IMG/VR virus record: IMGVR_UViG_2939127364_000001
Source: a virus
Lineage: Duplodnaviria > Heunggongvirae > Uroviricota > Caudoviricetes
DNA: 64,000 nucleotides
Strand: one strand, 5' to 3'
Part shown: positions 39,518 to 55,130 of the stretch, in pieces
How the letters are laid out: every line of letters starts with the position of its first letter
How positions within the stretch are numbered: position 1 is the stretch's first letter
The notes under the pieces: generated by a model
Databases searched by the model: none
What the model saw: only the letters and a program-made list of their open reading frames with translations
What the model was told of the DNA's origin: nothing
Made by a program: the position numbers and the translations under genes

Positions 39518-41077
39518 ATGACTGTTCGGATTGTATCTAACGCAGTTAATGCGCTTATTTCTGGCGCAGATGACAAGGTAAAGCAAATGGTGCAACAGAT
39601 GTTGAGCTACGAAGTCGAGACTGGCGACTGGAAGGGCACAAGCACGATGTTCAACTGGAGTAAAAACTCGTTCCCTGCTGGCTTTGCCAAGCCTGTAGCG
39701 GCGAACTTGAACAAGGCGGGCATCAAATGTGTTCATATCCGCAAAGACAAAGCCCCGGCGCTTGGTAAACCAAATCCGGCGGTTAACCCATTCCCATACA
39801 ATCCTGATTATGCGTATCAGGATCAGACTGTGGAAACACTGGTTCGAGAGGGAATGATGATTGCGCAGATCGCTACTGGTGGCGGGAAATCTAACGTTGC
39901 CTGCAAAGCAGCTGCACGTATCGGTCGAATGACATTATTTTTAACAACCCGCTCTGTTCTGATGTTTCAAATGGCCGAAAACTTCCAGAGATCCATCGAC
40001 TACCGCGCCGAAAATGGCGAACCGTGGTTAAAAGACCAAAAGGTTGGAGTCATTGGCTCTGGTGAGTTCCAGGTATCACGACATATCAACGTCGCTACAG
40101 TTCAAACTCTGGCAAGTTTCCTTGAAGAACCACCACGCGATGCAACTCCAGATAAGAAGAGCTACCACCTCAAACGTCGGGACTTGGTGAAACGCTTCCT
40201 TTCAAGTGTGTCTCTGCTTATTCTGGAAGAGGCGCATGAGTCTTCAGGTTCTAATTTCTATGACATTGCCAGATTATGTGTGAACGCAGACTATCGTCTG
40301 GCACTTACGGCCACGCCGTTCATGAAGGATTCTACAGAAGCCAACATGCGTCTGATGGCTGTGGCTGGGCGAATTGAAATCAAAGTCACAGAAAAGTACC
40401 TGATTGATCGAGGCATTCTGGCAAAACCGTACTTCCTTTATCATAAAGTTGCCTACAAGCCAGACGAGGTCAGAATAAAGGCGGAACTTGCCAACAAACA
40501 CCTCAATTTTAGAGTAGGTATGAGCACAGCCTACCAAAAGGCTTATCAGTTGGGCATCGTGTATAATTTGGGACGTAATGAGGCCATTGTTCGCGAAGCA
40601 TTGCTCTATAAGCAACATTCTCTCAATTGTATGACTCTGGTTCGTCTTAAACGCCACGGGAAAATCCTGATGGAAATGATGAAAGAGTCCGGCCTTAGAG
40701 TTGACTTCATTTATGGGGAATCGAACCAGTCGACAAGGCAAGCAAAGCTGAACAGTTTAGCGTCTGGTGAAATAGATGTTTTAATAGGCTCGACTATTCT
40801 GGATGTTGGTGTTGATGTGCCAAGCGTTGGTGCGGTCATTCTTGCTGGTGGTGGGAAAGCAGAAGTTGAAATGAGACAGCGTGTCGGTCGTGGCTTACGA
40901 GCCAAGAAGAATCAGGCAAACGTGTGTTTTATCACTGATTTCATTGACATTAGCAACAAATACCTGTTGTCTCACTCTTATGAGCGAAAACACATCATCG
41001 ACACCACACCTGGCTTTGCAGAAGGTGTATTGCCTATTGATGGCGCATTCGATTTTGGAGTTCTGAAACGAGATTAG
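39518..41077 (+). CDS. Superfamily 2 DEAD/DEAH-like helicase
   Basis: 519 aa; motif I ATGGGKSNV, motif II LILEEAHE, motif III TATP, motif VI QRVGRGLR. Confidence 0.75.
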   Translation: MTVRIVSNAVNALISGADDKVKQMVQQMLSYEVETGDWKGTSTMFNWSKNSFPAGFAKPVAANLNKAGIKCVHIRKDKAPALGKPNPAVNPFPYNPDYAYQDQTVETLVREGMMIAQIATGGGKSNVACKAAARIGRMTLFLTTRSVLMFQMAENFQRSIDYRAENGEPWLKDQKVGVIGSGEFQVSRHINVATVQTLASFLEEPPRDATPDKKSYHLKRRDLVKRFLSSVSLLILEEAHESSGSNFYDIARLCVNADYRLALTATPFMKDSTEANMRLMAVAGRIEIKVTEKYLIDRGILAKPYFLYHKVAYKPDEVRIKAELANKHLNFRVGMSTAYQKAYQLGIVYNLGRNEAIVREALLYKQHSLNCMTLVRLKRHGKILMEMMKESGLRVDFIYGESNQSTRQAKLNSLASGEIDVLIGSTILDVGVDVPSVGAVILAGGGKAEVEMRQRVGRGLRAKKNQANVCFITDFIDISNKYLLSHSYERKHIIDTTPGFAEGVLPIDGAFDFGVLKRD

Positions 41078-42706: not shown

Positions 42707-43126
42707 ATGAAAGCAAAAAACTTAATGATTCTAATGCTAACCACGTCACTAATTGGGTGTTCGTCTTCGTCTATATCTATTTCAAAGGCAAAGGATGCAC
42801 CTCAAAGCAGAATATTTAAATATCAAACACCACATGAGTCTAGTCTAACAATAGTTCGAGACAAAGGGCTGGTTGGTTCTGCATGTAACGCTTCCATTTT
42901 CATCAATGGAGAAACGGCTGCAAAGCTAGAACCTGGTGAAAAAGCAACTTTCTACCTTAACGAAGGAGAGTGGATCGTTGGGACATCAATTGAAAGTTCA
43001 GGTCTTTGCGCATTTAACCCCTCCAGGATGGAACGAGAAATAAAGCTAAAGCAGGGCGACTCGAAAACATATCGGGTTTTCACTACCTGGGATGGTACAA
43101 TGGACATATTGCCAACCACTTTATAA
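42707..43126 (+). CDS. Lipoprotein (superinfection-exclusion candidate)
   Basis: 139 aa; signal peptide with lipobox LTTSLIGCSSS. Confidence 0.6.
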   Translation: MKAKNLMILMLTTSLIGCSSSSISISKAKDAPQSRIFKYQTPHESSLTIVRDKGLVGSACNASIFINGETAAKLEPGEKATFYLNEGEWIVGTSIESSGLCAFNPSRMEREIKLKQGDSKTYRVFTTWDGTMDILPTTL

Positions 43127-43130
43127 TGAT

Positions 43131-43652
43131 ATGACGACGAAAGACATCACCTACGGCATACCGGCTGAAGTCTGGCCGCGAGACTACGAACATGCAGAGC
43201 GCACCTTGCTCTTCTGGCGGAGTGCAAAATTTCCTGTAAGAGTCACTCTCGAAGACGGCCAAGTGTTTTGCATGTATGTCTACGGGCTATTGAGCGCAAG
43301 AAATAAGCTGAACCTCACACCAGATCCGCTTAGCAACACAAATCGTATAAGGCTCCCTCTTGAGCGCATTAGCACAATTGAGTCGGGCATAGAAGAGGTT
43401 GACACTTCATTCACAGGTCGACTAACGCTAAACAATGAACAGATGGTTAATCAGCCATCACGTCGTGACTTTTTTAAGATATGTCGTCAGGCTTACCAAA
43501 ACGGCAAATCTATAAGGGTCTACATGGCAGACGGTCGCGAAATTGAGGGAACGTCAGATGGCGTTGACGCCTGTCTAGTCACACTTAAGTTGGAAGACGG
43601 TAGAAAAATACTTATTTTCTTCGATTGGGTTGAACGAATCCTTCCGTTTTAA
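43131..43652 (+). CDS. Hypothetical protein
   Basis: Track ORF 43092..43652; start set at ATG 43131, just after the lipoprotein stop. Confidence 0.4.
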   Translation: MTTKDITYGIPAEVWPRDYEHAERTLLFWRSAKFPVRVTLEDGQVFCMYVYGLLSARNKLNLTPDPLSNTNRIRLPLERISTIESGIEEVDTSFTGRLTLNNEQMVNQPSRRDFFKICRQAYQNGKSIRVYMADGREIEGTSDGVDACLVTLKLEDGRKILIFFDWVERILPF

Positions 43653-45330: not shown

Positions 45331-45491
45331 CAGCTTCCCGATGTTTTTTCTACATAAAGGCGAATGCAGCCGTTTCCCGAAAAAATCCTGGCCGTTTCCC
45401 GTCGGCTCATGAATACGTTCCTTGCCGTTTCTGAAAATTTCCCTGCGGCAGCTGGTGGCTATAGAGAAAGGGCCGTTTCTGGCCCTCTTCT
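45331..45491. repeat. Iteron-like cluster 1 (GCCGTTTC(C/T) repeats)
   Basis: 4-5 direct copies (cagccgtttcccg, ggccgtttcccg, tgccgtttctg, ggccgtttctgg), first two 22 bp apart; contains GCTGGTGG. Confidence 0.5.
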
Positions 45492-45996: not shown

Positions 45997-46013
45997 ATAA
46001 CAAATTGTTTTCT
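45997..46013. promoter_or_regulatory. Motif A upstream of 45495..45977
   Basis: ataacaaattgttttct. Confidence 0.4.
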
Positions 46014-46186
46014 TGTTGGCGTTAATTATCGTTGTACGAATAAGGCGTCAAAGTGGAAAGTTGCGGTAGCCGGACGGGAACAGGTGGGTTTGTCGGTTGC
46101 CTGGAGGTAAGAGGTTGGTGTTTTTAGCCTGCGGGAAACAGGATGGTCATTTAAGGCCACCAGCGTTAACTGGTGGCGTTTATCTC

Positions 46187-48880: not shown

Positions 48881-48897
48881 TAAACAACATGTTTTCT
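48881..48897. promoter_or_regulatory. Motif A upstream of 48540..48869
   Basis: taaacaacatgttttct. Confidence 0.4.
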
Positions 48898-49230
48898 TGA
48901 TGGTGTTATTATCGCAATAACGCACAGGCGAAAAAGGATTTTATTCCGGTGAATGTGGTTTTGGCAGTGAGTTTTCAGGTTCAGTACCGAGTACACTTTT
49001 TACATTATTCTGATTTAGTGGCCGAAGGTGGCTGGTGGGCAGAATAATCCTCTCCCCGAAAACCTACTGAAATCGATTGTGACCCGTTGGCTGTCTGGCA
49101 CAATTACGCTGTAACTGGGCATTCAGAGGGAATCCAGCGGTAAGTAAGTTCGCCTGCACGTGAGCGCCTCTCTTCTTCCCGCACATTACAGGTGGGTAGC
49201 CGCAACTCTCCCTATCGCTATACCGGTACG

Positions 49231-49372
49231 CCGCCGTTCCTGAACCGGCATCGAGCCTTTTCCCGAAATCCACACAGGCAACTCGACCGTTTCCCTGAAA
49301 ATCCCCAGCCGTTCCCCGAAGGCAACCCAGCCGTTTCTGTAGCGGGATGCAGCCTTTTCCCTGTATGGACCG
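49231..49372. repeat. Iteron-like cluster 2: six direct repeats at ~22-bp spacing
   Basis: Units starting near 49233, 49254, 49286, 49308, 49329 and 49351 (gccgttcc, agccttttcc, accgtttcc, agccgttcc, agccgtttc, agccttttcc); intervals 21, 32, 22, 21, 22. Confidence 0.55.
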
Positions 49373-49479
49373 AAGGCTAACCGTAGGGGTGTTACGGGGG
49401 ATAAAATCAGGAGTTGAATAAATACGAAAAAGGAGGCGACACCCCTCCTTCCCTCCCCACTTATACATACCTGTCTTGT

Positions 49480-50330
49480 TCGCTATACATGTTGTGTTTT
49501 CTTCGTGTTTTATCTGTCTCAACCTCTCTATAGGCGTTAATGCTCACTCCTTCCAGAATGTTCTATACGGCGACTATTTCTGTTGGTGAATTGGGTGTGT
49601 CGTTCTCTCTGTCGGTGTAAATGGTTTCGTTCGTTTTGCGGTGGTTCTTCTGTGGGGTGTTCTCGTCGTTTTGGTGATTGTTCTTCTCCGTCTATGGAGT
49701 AATGGCAGGTGGGCGATTCCTTTCGTTATTGTGTTTGAGTTGTTTGTCTGGAGTGTGTGAAAGGCTTTTGTAGTTATTCGTGTATTGGGTAATGGCGTTT
49801 CCCGTGATTGTTATGTTTCGTGTCTTTTGGGATTGAGAGAAACCTTGCGGTTACAGGCTTCGTTGGGGTTTCAGTGATTCTGGTGTTTCTTCGCTGTTTG
49901 GGTAATGGCGTGTCGTGGGTATCGCGCGTATGAATGTTTTCGGATTGCCTGTGAAAGTTAGGTTGGTTGTCCGGTAGCCTGGGAAGAAGAGGTGGGTCTT
50001 TTCGGTAGCCTGCCATAAAGAGGTTGGTTGTTTTGGGGAATGACATGTGTGTTATTTAGTTGTTTTGTTATGCCTGAAAATAAGTTGTTTATATGGTTGT
50101 GTAACGCAACGGGAACGATTTTGAGCGTGTGTTTTTGTTGGTAGTGTGTTGGATCGTCTGTGGTGAAAATTGGACGCTGTGGCGCTGTCTGCTGCGTAGA
50201 ATTACGGGTATAAGCAGTGATGTGTGAAAACGTCAATTTTTTAGACCAAATCGGGTGAAAGCGTTGATGTTTCGTTGATCTGTTATTCAGTTGTTTTCTT
50301 ATTGGTATAAACAACTATAACCTATTGATA
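49480..50330. other. GT-rich strand-asymmetric, apparently non-coding tract (~0.85 kb)
   Basis: + strand G+T about 80% by eye; no credible ORF on either strand; internal direct repeats (cggtagcctg... at 49972 and 50002; gtaatggc three times). Confidence 0.5.
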
Positions 50331-50433
50331 TTTAAGGATGTGATTGCAGGTATAGAATGGGGGTAGTGGCGATCAACGGATTCTTATAGAAAAGAATCAA
50401 ATTGTGACCGCCATTATCAATGAGTTGCAACCG

Positions 50434-51003
50434 TTAGTTGTTCAGATAAACATTTGGAACACGGACGTAGAAGTTCCTGTCGCCGGTAAGTTCCAGAGTA
50501 ATGTTAATGTCATTACCATTGTCTAGTGTAGCCGTTGCTCTATAGAACTTATCCGTCACCTTGTCCTCTATTGTCACCTTCATACATTTTGGTGCAGTCG
50601 AACCGTTATTCTCTTTCAGAATGGTCGTTACGAGAGGACAAGCCGCTTCTTCAAGAGCAACCTCTTTCTGGTGTGGGATACCGATGAAGATGTTACCAGC
50701 AAGCAACGCGACGATTACGATAAAAGGAAGTCGACTGCCTTTTGTAACGGTGGCACGTTTCCAGAGATAGACCGGAAGGAGAAATACTCCCCACAGGATG
50801 GCCGGTGGTTCATACCCTGCATCAGACAATGCCATTCTGTCAGCCACCAGAAAGCCGAGTCCAGCGACTCCACCTATCACTATTGCATAATTCAAATACT
50901 CATCTGGCGGCGCTCCAAAGAAGAGAGGCAGTAAAGCTAGAAGCCACGCATAAGCATTATTCAGAGGTTTTGTTTGTTGGTTCTGGGTTTCCATCACATC
51001 CAT
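50434..51003 (-). CDS. Integral membrane protein (hypothetical)
   Basis: 189 aa; 3-4 hydrophobic segments in the N-terminal half and a soluble C-terminal domain. Confidence 0.5.
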   Translation of the reverse strand: MDVMETQNQQTKPLNNAYAWLLALLPLFFGAPPDEYLNYAIVIGGVAGLGFLVADRMALSDAGYEPPAILWGVFLLPVYLWKRATVTKGSRLPFIVIVALLAGNIFIGIPHQKEVALEEAACPLVTTILKENNGSTAPKCMKVTIEDKVTDKFYRATATLDNGNDINITLELTGDRNFYVRVPNVYLNN

Positions 51004-51838: not shown

Positions 51839-53872
51839 TTACTTAACCTGGTGGCCTGGTTTAGCACCAGCATCCGGGCTTAACAGGAAGATATCTTTCC
51901 CGCCGGGGCCAGCAGCCATCACCATGCCTTCGGAGATACCGAAGCGCATTTTACGCGGAGCCAGGTTAGCCACCATAATGGTGTGACGACCAATCAGTGC
52001 CTGTGGGTCTGGATAAGCAGAACGGATGCCTGAGAAGACATTACGCTTTTCACCACCGAGATCCAGTGTCAGACGCAGCAGTTTGTCAGAACCTTCGACA
52101 AACTCCGCGTTTTCAATCAGCGCCACACGCAGGTCAACTTTGGCGAAGTCGTCAAAGGTGATGGTTTCCTGAATCGGGTCGTCAGCCAGTGGGCCAGTTA
52201 CCGGTGCAGCTGTGGCTTTCACTTCTTCTTTGGATGCTTCCACCAGTGCTTCCACCTGTTTCATATCGATACGGTTATACAATGCCTTGAACGGATTCAC
52301 TTTATGGCCCAGCAGCGGTTGCTGGATACCATCCCAGGTCAGTTCTGTATTCAGGAATGCTTCTGCACGTTCAGTCAGTTTCGGCAGTACCGGTTTCAAG
52401 TACGTCATCAGCACGCGGAACAGGTTAATGCCCATAGAGCAAATCGCCTGCAGATCGGCATCGCGTCCTTCCTGCTTCGCCACCACCCACGGAGCCTGTT
52501 CATCGACATATCGGTTAGCCAGGTCAGCCAATGCCATGATTTCACGGATAGCTTTACCAAATTCGCGGCTTTCCCATGCTTCGCCAATCACTTCAGCGGC
52601 ATCAGTAAAGGTTTTGTACAGTTGCGGGTCAGCCAGTTCGCTTGCCAGCACGCCGTCAAAACGCTTGTTGATAAAGCCTGCATTACGGGAGGCCAGGTTA
52701 ACCACTTTGTTCACGATATCGGCATTCACGCGCTGAACGAAATCCTCCAGGTTGAGATCGATATCATCAATGCGCGAAGAGAGTTTCGCAGTGTAGTAGT
52801 AACGCAGGCTGTCGGCGTCAAAATGATTCAGCCAGGTGCTGGCTTTAATAAAGGTGCCGCGAGACTTGGACATCTTCGCGCCGTTCACCGTCACATAGCC
52901 GTGAACAAACAGGTTGGTCGGCTTGCGGAAGTTGCTGCCTTCCAGCATGGCAGGCCAGAACAGGCTGTGGAAGTAAACAATATCTTTACCGATGAAGTGG
53001 TACAGCTCGGCTGTGGAGTCTTTCTTCCAGTATTCATCGAAGCTGGTGGTATCGCCGCGCTTGTCGCACAGATTCTTGAAGGAACCCATGTAGCCAATCG
53101 GCGCGTCCAGCCAGACGTAGAAATATTTGCCCGGCGCGTTCGGAATTTCAAAACCGAAGTAAGGCGCATCGCGGGAGATATCCCACTGTTGCAGGCCGGA
53201 TTCAAACCACTCCTGCATTTTGTTCGCCACCTGCTCCTGCAACGCACCGCTGCGGGTCCATGCCTGCAACATTTCGCTGAAAGAGGGCAGATCAAAGAAG
53301 AAGTGTTCGGAATCACGCATTACCGGGGTAGCGCCAGAAACCACCGATTTCGGCTCGATCAATTCAGTCGGGCTATATGTTGCGCCGCAGACTTCACAGT
53401 TATCGCCGTATTGATCTGGCGCTTTACATTTCGGGCAGGTGCCTTTCACAAAACGATCCGGCAGGAACATGCCTTTTTCCGGGTCGTACAACTGAGAGAT
53501 AGTGCGGTTTTTAATAAAACCGTTCTCTTTCAGGCGAGTATAGATAAGCTCAGACAGCTGGCGGTTCTCTTCGCTGTGCGTCGAGTGATAGTTGTCATAG
53601 CTGATGTTAAAGCCTGCGAAATCAGTCTGGTGTTCCTGACTCATTTCGCCAATCATCTGCTCCGGTGTGATACCAAGCTGCTGTGCTTTCAGCATGATCG
53701 GCGTACCGTGGGCATCGTCGGCACAGATGAAATTAACCTCGTGGCCGCGCATTCGCTGGTAACGAACCCAGACATCAGCCTGGATGTGCTCCAGCATATG
53801 GCCGAGGTGGATTGAGCCGTTAGCGTACGGCAGCGCGCACGTCACCAGAATTTTCTTCGCGACTTGGGTCAT
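51839..53872 (-). CDS. metG: Methionyl-tRNA synthetase
   Basis: 677 aa from [26 protein letters not shown] (HIGH-type motif), KMSKS present, C-terminal ...KPGHQVK; start set at ATG 53872 rather than the upstream-extended track ORF. Confidence 0.95.
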
Positions 53873-54029
53873 AGTAGGCATTACTTCTTTGTAGTGAAAA
53901 GGGGCTTGATAGTAACAAAATGGCCTTATGTCTGCCATGTGATAACAGCATTTCTCATAAATGATTAAATGTCGTAGCTGGAGTACACTACAAGGCGACA
54001 ATTGCGCAAATTAAAATAAAGGAGACGGG

Positions 54030-55130
54030 ATGAGCGAGTCCAAATCGCCGGATGCCCTGAGAGCAATGGTAGCCGGTACGCTGGCTAATTTTCAGCACCC
54101 AACCCTGAAACACAACCTGACTACGCTTAAAGCGTTACACCATGTTGCGTTGATGGATGACACACTGCATGTCGAACTAATCATGCCTTTCGTGTGGAAT
54201 AAGCCTTTTGAAGACCTGAAAGAGCAATGTAGTGGTGATCTGCTCCGTATCACTGGCGCAAAGGCTATTGACTGGAAGCTGTCGTACAACATTGCCACGC
54301 TTAAGCGCGTCAAAAACCAACCAGGCATTAATGGCGTTAAGAACATTATCGCCGTCAGCTCAGGCAAGGGCGGCGTGGGTAAATCCTCCACGGCGGTAAA
54401 CCTGGCACTGGCGTTGGCTGCTGAAGGTGCGAAAGTTGGTATTTTGGATGCCGATATCTATGGTCCATCAATTCCAACCATGCTGGGCGCGGAAAACCAA
54501 CGTCCAACCTCACCTGACGGTACTCACATGGCACCTATCATGTCTCATGGCCTGGCAACCAACTCTATTGGTTATCTGGTCACCGACGACAATGCAATGG
54601 TGTGGCGTGGACCGATGGCCAGCAAGGCGCTGATGCAGATGTTGCAGGAAACTCTATGGCCTGATCTGGACTATCTCGTTCTCGATATGCCGCCGGGCAC
54701 TGGTGATATTCAGTTGACGCTGGCGCAGAACATTCCTGTAACTGGTGCGGTTGTGGTAACTACGCCGCAAGACATCGCGCTGATCGATGCGAAGAAAGGC
54801 ATTGTGATGTTCGAAAAAGTCGAAGTGCCGGTACTGGGTATCGTCGAAAACATGAGTGTGCATATTTGCAGTAACTGCGGTCATCACGAGCCAATTTTTG
54901 GCACCGGTGGCGCACAGAAACTGGCCGAGAAATACAACACGCAGTTGTTAGGCCAAATGCCACTTCATATCTCTCTTCGTGAAGATCTGGATAACGGAAC
55001 ACCAACCGTTATTAGTCGTCCAGATAGCGAATTTACGGCTATTTATCGTGACCTCGCAGATCGCGTTGCCGCCCAAATGTATTGGCAAGGTGAAGTAATA
55101 CCTGGCGAAATCGCATTCCGCGCAGTGTGA
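54030..55130 (+). CDS. apbC: Fe-S cluster carrier ATPase ApbC/Mrp
   Basis: 366 aa; P-loop SGKGGVGKSS; CxxC motif ICSNCGHH; divergent from metG as in E. coli. Confidence 0.9.
   Translation: MSESKSPDALRAMVAGTLANFQHPTLKHNLTTLKALHHVALMDDTLHVELIMPFVWNKPFEDLKEQCSGDLLRITGAKAIDWKLSYNIATLKRVKNQPGINGVKNIIAVSSGKGGVGKSSTAVNLALALAAEGAKVGILDADIYGPSIPTMLGAENQRPTSPDGTHMAPIMSHGLATNSIGYLVTDDNAMVWRGPMASKALMQMLQETLWPDLDYLVLDMPPGTGDIQLTLAQNIPVTGAVVVTTPQDIALIDAKKGIVMFEKVEVPVLGIVENMSVHICSNCGHHEPIFGTGGAQKLAEKYNTQLLGQMPLHISLREDLDNGTPTVISRPDSEFTAIYRDLADRVAAQMYWQGEVIPGEIAFRAV

Follow-up and report, generated by a model that had tools for sequence, protein, structure and literature searches.

Rut sites and Rho terminators such as lambda tR1 and trp t′, as well as Rho silencing of foreign transcription, involve RNA that is C-rich, G-poor, unstructured and untranslated. 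These sites lie past a stop codon, and transcript signal is lost at them without an intrinsic terminator. In plasmids, origins and their iterons can be insulated by a terminator, whose hairpin faces the incoming transcription. In this study, we analysed a strongly skewed tract at positions 49480-50330 of a 64-kb window (the whole stretch of DNA examined, 64,000 nt, IMG/VR record IMGVR_UViG_2939127364_000001), which was identified as an SSU5/pHCM2-type phage-plasmid by its matches to plasmids and phages. On its minus strand, the tract resembles rut sites in composition, weak structure, lack of translation and position past a stop codon; its loss of transcript signal in gene-level counts may be of the same kind, and an upstream stem-loop could mark a processed 3′ end. 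In addition, like the insulated plasmid origins, it lies immediately upstream of an iteron-like cluster, with a hairpin facing the incoming transcription. However, it is about 5-10 times longer than usual rut sites and A-rich, its primary sequence is strongly conserved, and it includes repeated motifs and an internal promoter-like element; the role of Rho is predicted. Furthermore, the iteron cluster is here only a putative origin, and repA and the own origin of the element are located elsewhere. We tentatively propose that the tract is a long one-way zone of Rho loading and termination, which would insulate the iteron cluster and the next operon from the transcription of cargo genes.

The module to which the tract belongs, as its core, spans about 1.5 kb without genes (48890-50434) and is left empty in the annotation of the NCBI Prokaryotic Genome Annotation Pipeline (PGAP). 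Variable cargo genes lie to the right of the module, and the iteron cluster and the next conserved operon, which runs from 48869 down to 45495, lie to the left, all on the minus strand. Both the strand of the flanking genes and the position of the tract directly beside this CCGTTYCC cluster (iteron cluster 2) had been described correctly in an earlier reading of the sequence alone (the sequence-only reading).

The base composition of the plus strand at 49480-50330 was A 0.172, C 0.140, G 0.291 and T 0.397 (G+T 0.688). For the best 400-nt window, the G+T content was 0.748, which is 6.6 standard deviations (SD) above the window-wide mean of 0.500 (SD 0.038). Along the tract, the GC skew ranged from +0.36 to +0.49 and the AT skew from -0.29 to -0.54. 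The GT segment scored 212-225 versus 43 for the next best segment, when the 64-kb window and the whole 108-kb genome of phage Cyrano were scanned; no other segment of either is nearly as skewed as the tract. The strong GT skew of the sequence-only reading was therefore confirmed by sliding-window GC and AT skew and by maximal-segment scoring. So was its C/A-rich and G-poor minus-strand transcript: the core would give an RNA with 40% A, 32% C, 16% U and 12.5% G. In 78-nt windows of the minus strand of the tract, the median C/G ratio was 2.36, and the ratio was above 1 in 95% and at least 2 in 75% of them, so that the RNA shows the C/G > 1 over about 80 nt that is typical of rut sites. There were 1,881 windows with a ratio of at least 2 in the 64 kb, and 582 of them fall within the tract. 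In addition, there were 9.7 YC dimers per 80 nt on the minus strand of the tract versus 7.9 window-wide. Overall, the coding strand of the phage has more G than C, and the same strand flips to a large excess of C over G in the tract, which is a local reversal of skew. G↔T changes made up 27-33% of the substitutions in the tract versus 7-19% alongside. This excess was considered as a sign of selection on the skew and was rejected, since a stationary model with the composition of the tract predicts the same values (our own calculation). All that follows from it is that the skew has reached equilibrium.

A and C do not pair with each other. Thus, an amino-rich (A+C) strand gives the least structured RNA possible. 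The minimum free energy of the minus-strand RNA (911 nt) was -141 kcal/mol versus -274 ± 31 kcal/mol for 42 other minus-strand segments (z = +4.25), and the plus-strand RNA of the tract folded ordinarily (-235 kcal/mol). The minus-strand RNA of the tract therefore has little secondary structure, as in rut sites. Compared with shuffles of the same composition, the z-scores were -0.35 for the minus strand and +1.13 for the plus strand, and no credible Rfam match was found at E ≤ 1. A structured non-coding RNA, which the sequence-only reading had listed as an alternative, was rejected because of these near-zero z-scores and the lack of an Rfam match, and no covariation was seen.

The longest open reading frames (ORFs) of the tract region encode 90 and 118 aa on the minus strand, as expected by chance because this strand is poor in T and G. 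The longest stop-free frame has 115 codons versus a mean of 112 in dinucleotide-preserving shuffles (p = 0.40). In addition, in the longest open frame among the relatives, that of the pHCM2 subgroup, nucleotide differences were spread evenly over the codon positions in all 45 sequence pairs (all p > 0.07), and frameshifting indels of 1, 2, 8, 10 and 11 nt were found among the tracts of relatives; the tract shows neither the excess of third-position changes nor the indels in threes of protein-coding sequence. The tract ORFs matched no Pfam or PHROG family, whereas all real neighbour genes except one matched a PHROG. Protein coding on either strand was rejected because of the lack of a family, the even codon positions, the frameshifts and the ORF lengths expected from composition, and the RNA would be untranslated, as that of rut sites is. 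The sequence-only reading had seen no credible coding capacity here and had regarded the minus-strand ORFs as low-complexity artefacts. Both judgements hold, and no conserved protein-coding frame with homologues was found.

Meanwhile, genes for hypothetical proteins have been deposited within the module in phage Cyrano (CYRAN_103/104) and Salmonella phage SSU5 (SSU5_108/109), and their strand differs between the records. These genes, together with the minus-strand ORFs 49064-49522 and 49774-50314 of the window, are almost certainly artefacts. There is one minor point that is unexplained. In the pHCM2 subgroup (L005 2520-3361, L009 and L011), a stop-free frame of 227 codons is present on the C/A-rich strand, which exceeds the lengths in shuffles (p about 0.001-0.006), and the GCCATTAC repeats sit in frame within it (RHYxIHGEE). 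Neither an ATG start nor a codon-position signature was found in this frame.

The expression values came from the LF82/Cyrano study (PMC9928086), as re-analysed stranded RNA-seq in log2(fpkm+5) per gene (FPKM, sequenced fragments normalised per kilobase of transcript and per million fragments mapped). They are gene-level counts of one strain (LF82) in the lysogenic state under five conditions. CYRAN_102 (window 50434-51003), which is listed there as a moron, namely a prophage gene expressed in the lysogen, had 45-59 FPKM in LB, and its values reached about 590 in other conditions (PMC9928086). CYRAN_103, a spurious same-strand ORF over the first 360 nt of the tract, had 0 FPKM in LB and 14 at most (PMC9928086). 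Accordingly, the RNA-seq signal falls more than 40-fold, and up to about 250-fold, on entering the tract. A terminator scan found no intrinsic terminator between CYRAN_102 and the start of the tract. These results suggest that transcription or RNA accumulation stops on entry into the tract, and show that no abundant RNA comes from the tract in lysogens.

The tract is bracketed by two conserved hairpins (Table 1). The inverted repeat at the right boundary lies 21 nt past the stop codon of the upstream minus-strand gene and lacks a U-tract. The outer stem shows no variation, and the inner one differs yet pairs in four lineages (44 variants). In addition, the outer stem includes a G·U pair on the minus strand, which would be an A·C mismatch on the plus strand. 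The distal hairpin was kept in 31 variants, with 94.5% of the cells paired and one pair showing compensatory changes. Four of its 10 pairs are mostly G·U, and thus the helix favours the minus strand. With its G+C-rich stem and U-run, the distal site has the form of an intrinsic terminator of the minus strand. This U-tract is of good quality in the E. coli group, and that of the pHCM2 group is poor.

From these observations, we infer that Rho is involved and that the zone has an insulating purpose. A polymerase that leaves the cargo genes, or that starts at the weak internal promoter-like element, would produce naked C-rich RNA. Rho would load on this RNA and end transcription inside the tract. 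The proximal hairpin may shield the 3′ end of the upstream mRNA, and the distal hairpin with its U-run may serve as a back-stop for any polymerase that escapes. The barrier would be one-way because the plus-strand RNA would be G-rich and a poor substrate for Rho. In this manner, cargo transcription would reach neither the iteron cluster nor the operon beyond it, which is regulated separately. The sequence-only reading had also expected a Rho-loading region; its composition, weak folding, lack of translation and conserved orientation, together with the drop in RNA-seq signal, are in favour of it, and the dependence on Rho itself is a prediction.

The results of database searches showed that about 240 E. 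coli plasmids of 100-120 kb match the region at 95-98% identity and phage Cyrano at 97%, and that phage SSU5 and Klebsiella phage-plasmids match at about 67%. A search of PLSDB gave homologues of the module in 832 plasmids, which come from Klebsiella, Escherichia, Enterobacter, Salmonella (including pHCM2 of S. Typhi CT18), Citrobacter and Cronobacter. Among 5,426 complete E. coli genomes, 245 (4.5%) carry the tract, plasmid-borne in every case, and no match to the region or tract was found in the chromosomes. The position and orientation of the tract are identical in E. coli, Salmonella, Klebsiella, Enterobacter, Citrobacter, Cronobacter, Buttiauxella and a distant metagenomic relative. In every homologue examined (15 measured), the G+T content was 0.66-0.72 over 620-850 nt in the same orientation. 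The sequence-only reading had raised the possible absence of the tract from related phages; no relative without it was found, and the weakest BLAST hits (H91 and H92) both have the full tract.

When the window was compared with the Buttiauxella element, the tract aligned at 68-70% identity, whereas the four-fold degenerate sites were only 39% identical. The mean column conservation of the tract was 0.81 in ten diverse sequences. As judged from these alignments, the primary sequence of the tract, beyond its composition, is under constraint. The most distant relative found, L117, has a flanking gene that is 51% identical in protein. Its tract is 839 nt long, lies in the same place and has 67.5% A+C on the gene strand, and BLAST found no similarity between it and the tract of the window. 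L117 keeps the skew and the layout, and most of its individual motifs are changed. For example, (A/G)TGGCAGGTA occurs there three times in place of the GTAATGGC repeats.

In some Klebsiella lineages, a plus-strand cassette with DUF262 and type I restriction-modification (RM) genes lies to the right of the tract. The tracts with this cassette are 94-96% identical to that of a K. variicola lineage with a minus-strand gene there. Thus, the cassette is recent, and the plus-strand cassettes do not contradict the proposed one-way barrier. In addition, large Klebsiella plasmids of about 200-250 kb with other replicon types (IncFIB/IncHI1B; L006 and L007) carry most of the tract and the DUF262/type I RM cassette, and this region is 96-97% identical to Klebsiella phage-plasmids. 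Their homology starts about 110 nt inside the tract, and thus a recombination junction lies within the tract (about 4717 in L006). In the literature searched, we found no published description of this region, and only the LF82/Cyrano study gives expression values.

The internal direct repeats noted in the sequence-only reading are present, though they are short and diverged, and Tandem Repeats Finder reported nothing in the tract, that is, no tandem array. The GTAATGGC repeats (listed as GCCATTAC in the minus-strand reading) have three copies here and up to six in relatives, and rank among the best conserved islands of the tract. A 22-nt repeat is present at 50050 and 50281 (91% identity). The first 10 nt of the 31-bp unit match the RfaH ops core CGGTAGnnTG, with exact copies at 49972 and 50003 on the plus strand; the functionally critical ops positions for RfaH are C3-G8, T11 and G12 (PMC5995543). 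The exact pattern of the 31-bp unit occurred in 96 IMG/VR stretches, and all 80 that were analysed were SSU5-like contigs. Furthermore, the 62-bp tandem element (GCGGTAGCCGG...TCGGTTGCCTG...AAGAGGTTGGT) was found once more at 46062-46125, in a short local GT-rich patch directly upstream of the -35 hexamer of the minus-strand promoter at 46005.

The heptamer YGTTGAY occurs five times in the tract. The TTGTTTTCTTAT motif is also present at promoters or 5′ untranslated regions of minus-strand operons (5368, 46005, 48897 and 51698), and in Cyrano upstream of parA and other genes. The near-palindrome AAATAA-G-TTGTTT of the window reads AAACAA-C-TTGTTT in relatives. Meanwhile, a repeated promoter/operator module was observed 35-55 nt upstream of several start codons, including that of parA (window 5368, 46005, 48897 and 51698; Cyrano 29253, 81272, 93159 and 98419). 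On the minus strand, it reads roughly GATAAT-N8-A(T/C)AAGAAAACAA-N-TTGTTT, with an AAACAA-N-TTGTTT palindrome. This module probably defines the regulon of a single phage regulator.

The spacing of the promoter-like element was exactly 18 nt in 46 distinct variants of the family despite a variable spacer sequence, and its equivalent in L117 is TTGACA-18-TATACC. The C at position -7 is unfavourable for sigma-70, which makes it a poor sigma-70 promoter, and a simple promoter scan did not call it. The family-wide conserved module, the constrained primary sequence, the two conserved hairpins that bracket the tract and the conserved promoter-like element all go beyond the sequence-only reading.

Table 1. 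Positions of the features in and around the skewed tract (window coordinates)
Feature	Position	Strand	Basis or remark
Core skewed tract	49577..50306	-	Maximal-scoring GT segment, 730 nt, G+T 0.716 on + strand
Three ~29-nt direct repeats ending GTAATGGC	49678-49706, 49768-49796, 49881-49909	+	Repeat search
Tandem 2 x 31-bp unit, CGGTAGCCTG-N5-AAGAGGTGGGT-N5	49972..50033	+	77% identity between units
Longest nearly invariant block, 75 nt	50230..50304	.	Conservation blocks; YGTTGAY heptamers, both orientations
TTGTTTTCTTAT motif copy (ATAAGAAAACAA in - strand reading)	50291-50302		Within block 50230-50304
Degenerate second TTGTTTTCTTAT-motif copy (TTGTTTTGTTAT), then AAATAA-G-TTGTTT near-palindrome	50050..50095	.	
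Promoter-like element, TTGACG (50236-50231), 18-nt spacer, TATACC (50212-50207)	50207..50236	-	A-tract just upstream
Right-boundary two-tier inverted repeat, TGGCGATCA ... TGACCGCCA enclosing GATTCTT-ATAGAA-AAGAATC	50367..50413	-	
Distal hairpin then UUUUUCGUAUUUAUU, intrinsic-terminator-like	49427..49453	-	Terminator scan, 10-pair stem
CCGTTYCC / CCTTTTCC repeat cluster (iteron cluster 2)	49228..49365	+	Adjoins tract, downstream in - strand sense
Promoter/operator module of next - strand operon (unit the tract would shield)	48891..48930	-	

A sister direct-repeat cluster of the GCCGTTTCC type lies at 45365-45480, in the same orientation as iteron cluster 2 and 3.9 kb from it. Each of the two clusters has a Chi site nearby (45451 and 49031), and the pair brackets a block of small minus-strand genes. 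This paired layout recalls P4 ori/crr. In Cyrano, no CCGTTYCC-type repeats were found near repA. There were 17 copies of Chi (GCTGGTGG) in the 64-kb window and 25 in the 108-kb Cyrano genome, where the chance expectation for an 8-mer is estimated at about 2, with no strong strand bias. No Chi was found inside 49480-50330, and the nearest one is at 49031.

A T4-like UvsW helicase gene lies inside the window (39518-41077). In Cyrano, the part from 32 to 68 kb encodes UvsY, a gp32-like single-stranded DNA-binding protein, a large RecA/UvsX-like protein, SbcCD-like proteins, RuvC and RNase H. The family further has genes for Pol III alpha, epsilon and theta, as well as for a helicase and a primase of its own. 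The lytic origin of the SSU5/pHCM2-type family is apparently unmapped so far. In addition, 43092-43652 encodes an FljA-like protein (Pfam Flag1_repress, E = 2e-68), which is kept in all relatives examined; FljA is an mRNA-binding translational repressor of flagellin. To the right of the module, full-length metG (methionine-tRNA ligase) and apbC/mrp genes lie at 51839-55130 in the divergent arrangement of the chromosome. They are cargo of the phage-plasmid and not chromosome, and the metG-apbC pair is annotated also in Cyrano and many E. coli plasmids.

Several points weigh against a one-way Rho barrier as the whole explanation. Known Rho terminators need about 80-200 nt and their sequence is poorly conserved, whereas the tract has about 800 nt and is far better conserved than the four-fold degenerate sites. 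The discrete conserved motifs and the promoter-like geometry are unneeded for a function that depends on composition only, and the RNA is A-rich instead of pyrimidine-rich. Furthermore, the boundary hairpin or fast decay of the RNA could also account for the drop in signal. A role in Rho loading does not explain the strong conservation of primary sequence and repeated motifs, and thus these point to an additional sequence-specific function. An alternative explanation is a cis-acting DNA element, in which asymmetric protein-binding sites facing the same way work with the iterons and the skew is a by-product. Its variants are a lytic or recombination-dependent replication origin, a hub for regulator binding and a centromere-like site. 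We regard this explanation as a serious rival of lower probability. The conservation beyond neutral sites is consistent with it, as are the invariant blocks and the motifs in the same orientation (three to six copies of GTAATGGC, the 31-bp tandem unit and five YGTTGAY heptamers), and, in the manner of protein sites, the 62-bp element and the TTGTTTTCTTAT motif are present again at promoters in other parts of the genome. Moreover, the tract adjoins one of the two iteron clusters and is silent in lysogens. Like the systems of T4 oriF/oriG and P4 ori/crr, the family has T4-like UvsW, UvsX (RecA), UvsY, gp32 and RNase H and two clusters 3.9 kb apart, and, as in the R-loop origins of T4, a promoter-like element lies beside a strong strand asymmetry. 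However, the tract (44% G+C) has no A+T-rich unwinding element, cumulative GC skew shows no origin-like switch, and neither an initiator protein nor initiation has been identified. There is no adjacent initiator gene, and in Cyrano repA lies at a distance of about 34 kb and lacks such repeats; of the repeats, A+T-rich element and nearby initiator of iteron origins, the repeats alone are present, next to the tract. In addition, L117 keeps the skew and layout with most motifs changed, and the G·U-rich hairpins at both ends argue that the minus-strand RNA matters. For a single-strand origin, a primosome site or a packaging region, all of which the sequence-only reading had mentioned, we found no specific support.

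Alternatively, the tract could be a transcription unit in its own right. Its promoter, repressed or dependent on an activator, would start near 50200 a C/A-rich non-coding RNA of about 0.77 kb, which would end at 49453-49427 and act in the lytic phase, either as a decoy for Rho or Hfq (AAN repeats) in trans or as a cis leader with regulated antitermination. The hexamers, the invariant 18-nt spacing and the upstream A-tract are kept in 46 variants and L117, the far end carries a terminator-like, strand-specific hairpin, an operator-like motif common to other phage promoters lies just upstream, and the primary sequence is constrained. However, the -10-like hexamer with its C at -7 is very weak for sigma-70 and the element escapes a simple scan, the first ~240 nt of this putative RNA had 0-14 FPKM of sense reads in all five conditions, and no structure, covariation or known RNA family was found. 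Furthermore, such an untranslated RNA should itself be terminated by Rho. The CA-rich sponge RNAs CrcZ and CrcY of Pseudomonas, which titrate Hfq/Crc, are likewise A/C-rich and weakly structured with many AAN or CA motifs, but the tract differs from them in having no expression detected in lysogens and no repeated A-rich consensus, in being only a putative independent RNA and in its other host family. Taken together, we consider a dedicated transcription unit a further serious rival, though an unlikely one. Similarly unlikely is a more specific pair of proposals, which would make the tract more than a passive terminator. In one, a repressor-controlled RNA of about 0.8 kb, running from TTGACG-18-TATACC to 49453-49427, would be induced and would titrate Rho or Hfq in trans for operon read-through. 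In the other, the tract would be a strand-asymmetric DNA platform that serves, with the two CCGTTYCC clusters, a T4-like recombination- or R-loop-dependent lytic replication. It is much less probable still that the plus strand gives the functional transcript, namely a G/U-rich Rho-resistant leader, whose two ops-like pause sites (CGGTAGCCTG) would recruit RfaH for cargo on the plus strand, for example the Klebsiella operon of DUF262 and type I RM genes. As in JUMPStart/ops leaders, there are two GGTAGC-containing repeats that match CGGTAGnnTG, exactly at all critical positions, at least one canonical copy is present in 10 of 10 aligned homologues, and a plus-strand defence operon directly follows the tract in some Klebsiella elements. 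However, the copies are on the strand opposite to the flanking genes and not in a transcribed leader that precedes an operon of their own direction: to the right, the window and most lineages continue with minus-strand genes, and no plus-strand promoter was found upstream. The motif is also absent from L117, the homologous 62-bp element at 46062 lacks the pause base T11 and lies upstream of a minus-strand promoter, and a scan of neighbouring genes gave no NusG/RfaH-like protein. We give equally little credence to a decaying relic without function (a pseudogene or degenerate promoter modules) or a low-complexity basic protein of the minus strand. The gene-less degenerate copies of the promoter/operator module in the tract would fit a relic, but length, position, skew and layout are kept where synonymous sites are near saturation. 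The 227-codon frame of the pHCM2 subgroup, longer than in shuffles, would fit a protein, but there is no codon-position pattern, start codon or family, and indels shift the frame.

SSU5/pHCM2-type phage-plasmids are common in clinical Enterobacteriaceae, and the variable region that abuts the tract carries defence systems, toxins and sometimes resistance genes. Among the regions examined, the module is the largest conserved non-coding feature, and annotation pipelines leave it blank or fill it with spurious hypothetical proteins. If the tract is a one-way Rho barrier, this would explain how freely exchanged cargo genes can be active in lysogens and leave the neighbouring iteron cluster and regulated operon undisturbed, and the tract would be a compact, portable and direction-specific insulator. 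Its novelty would then lie in the great length, the conservation and the bracketing by hairpins, while a decoy RNA or an origin would be more novel. If the sequence-specific features mark a lytic origin or a decoy RNA, they would reveal a hitherto unknown part of the phage-plasmid life cycle.

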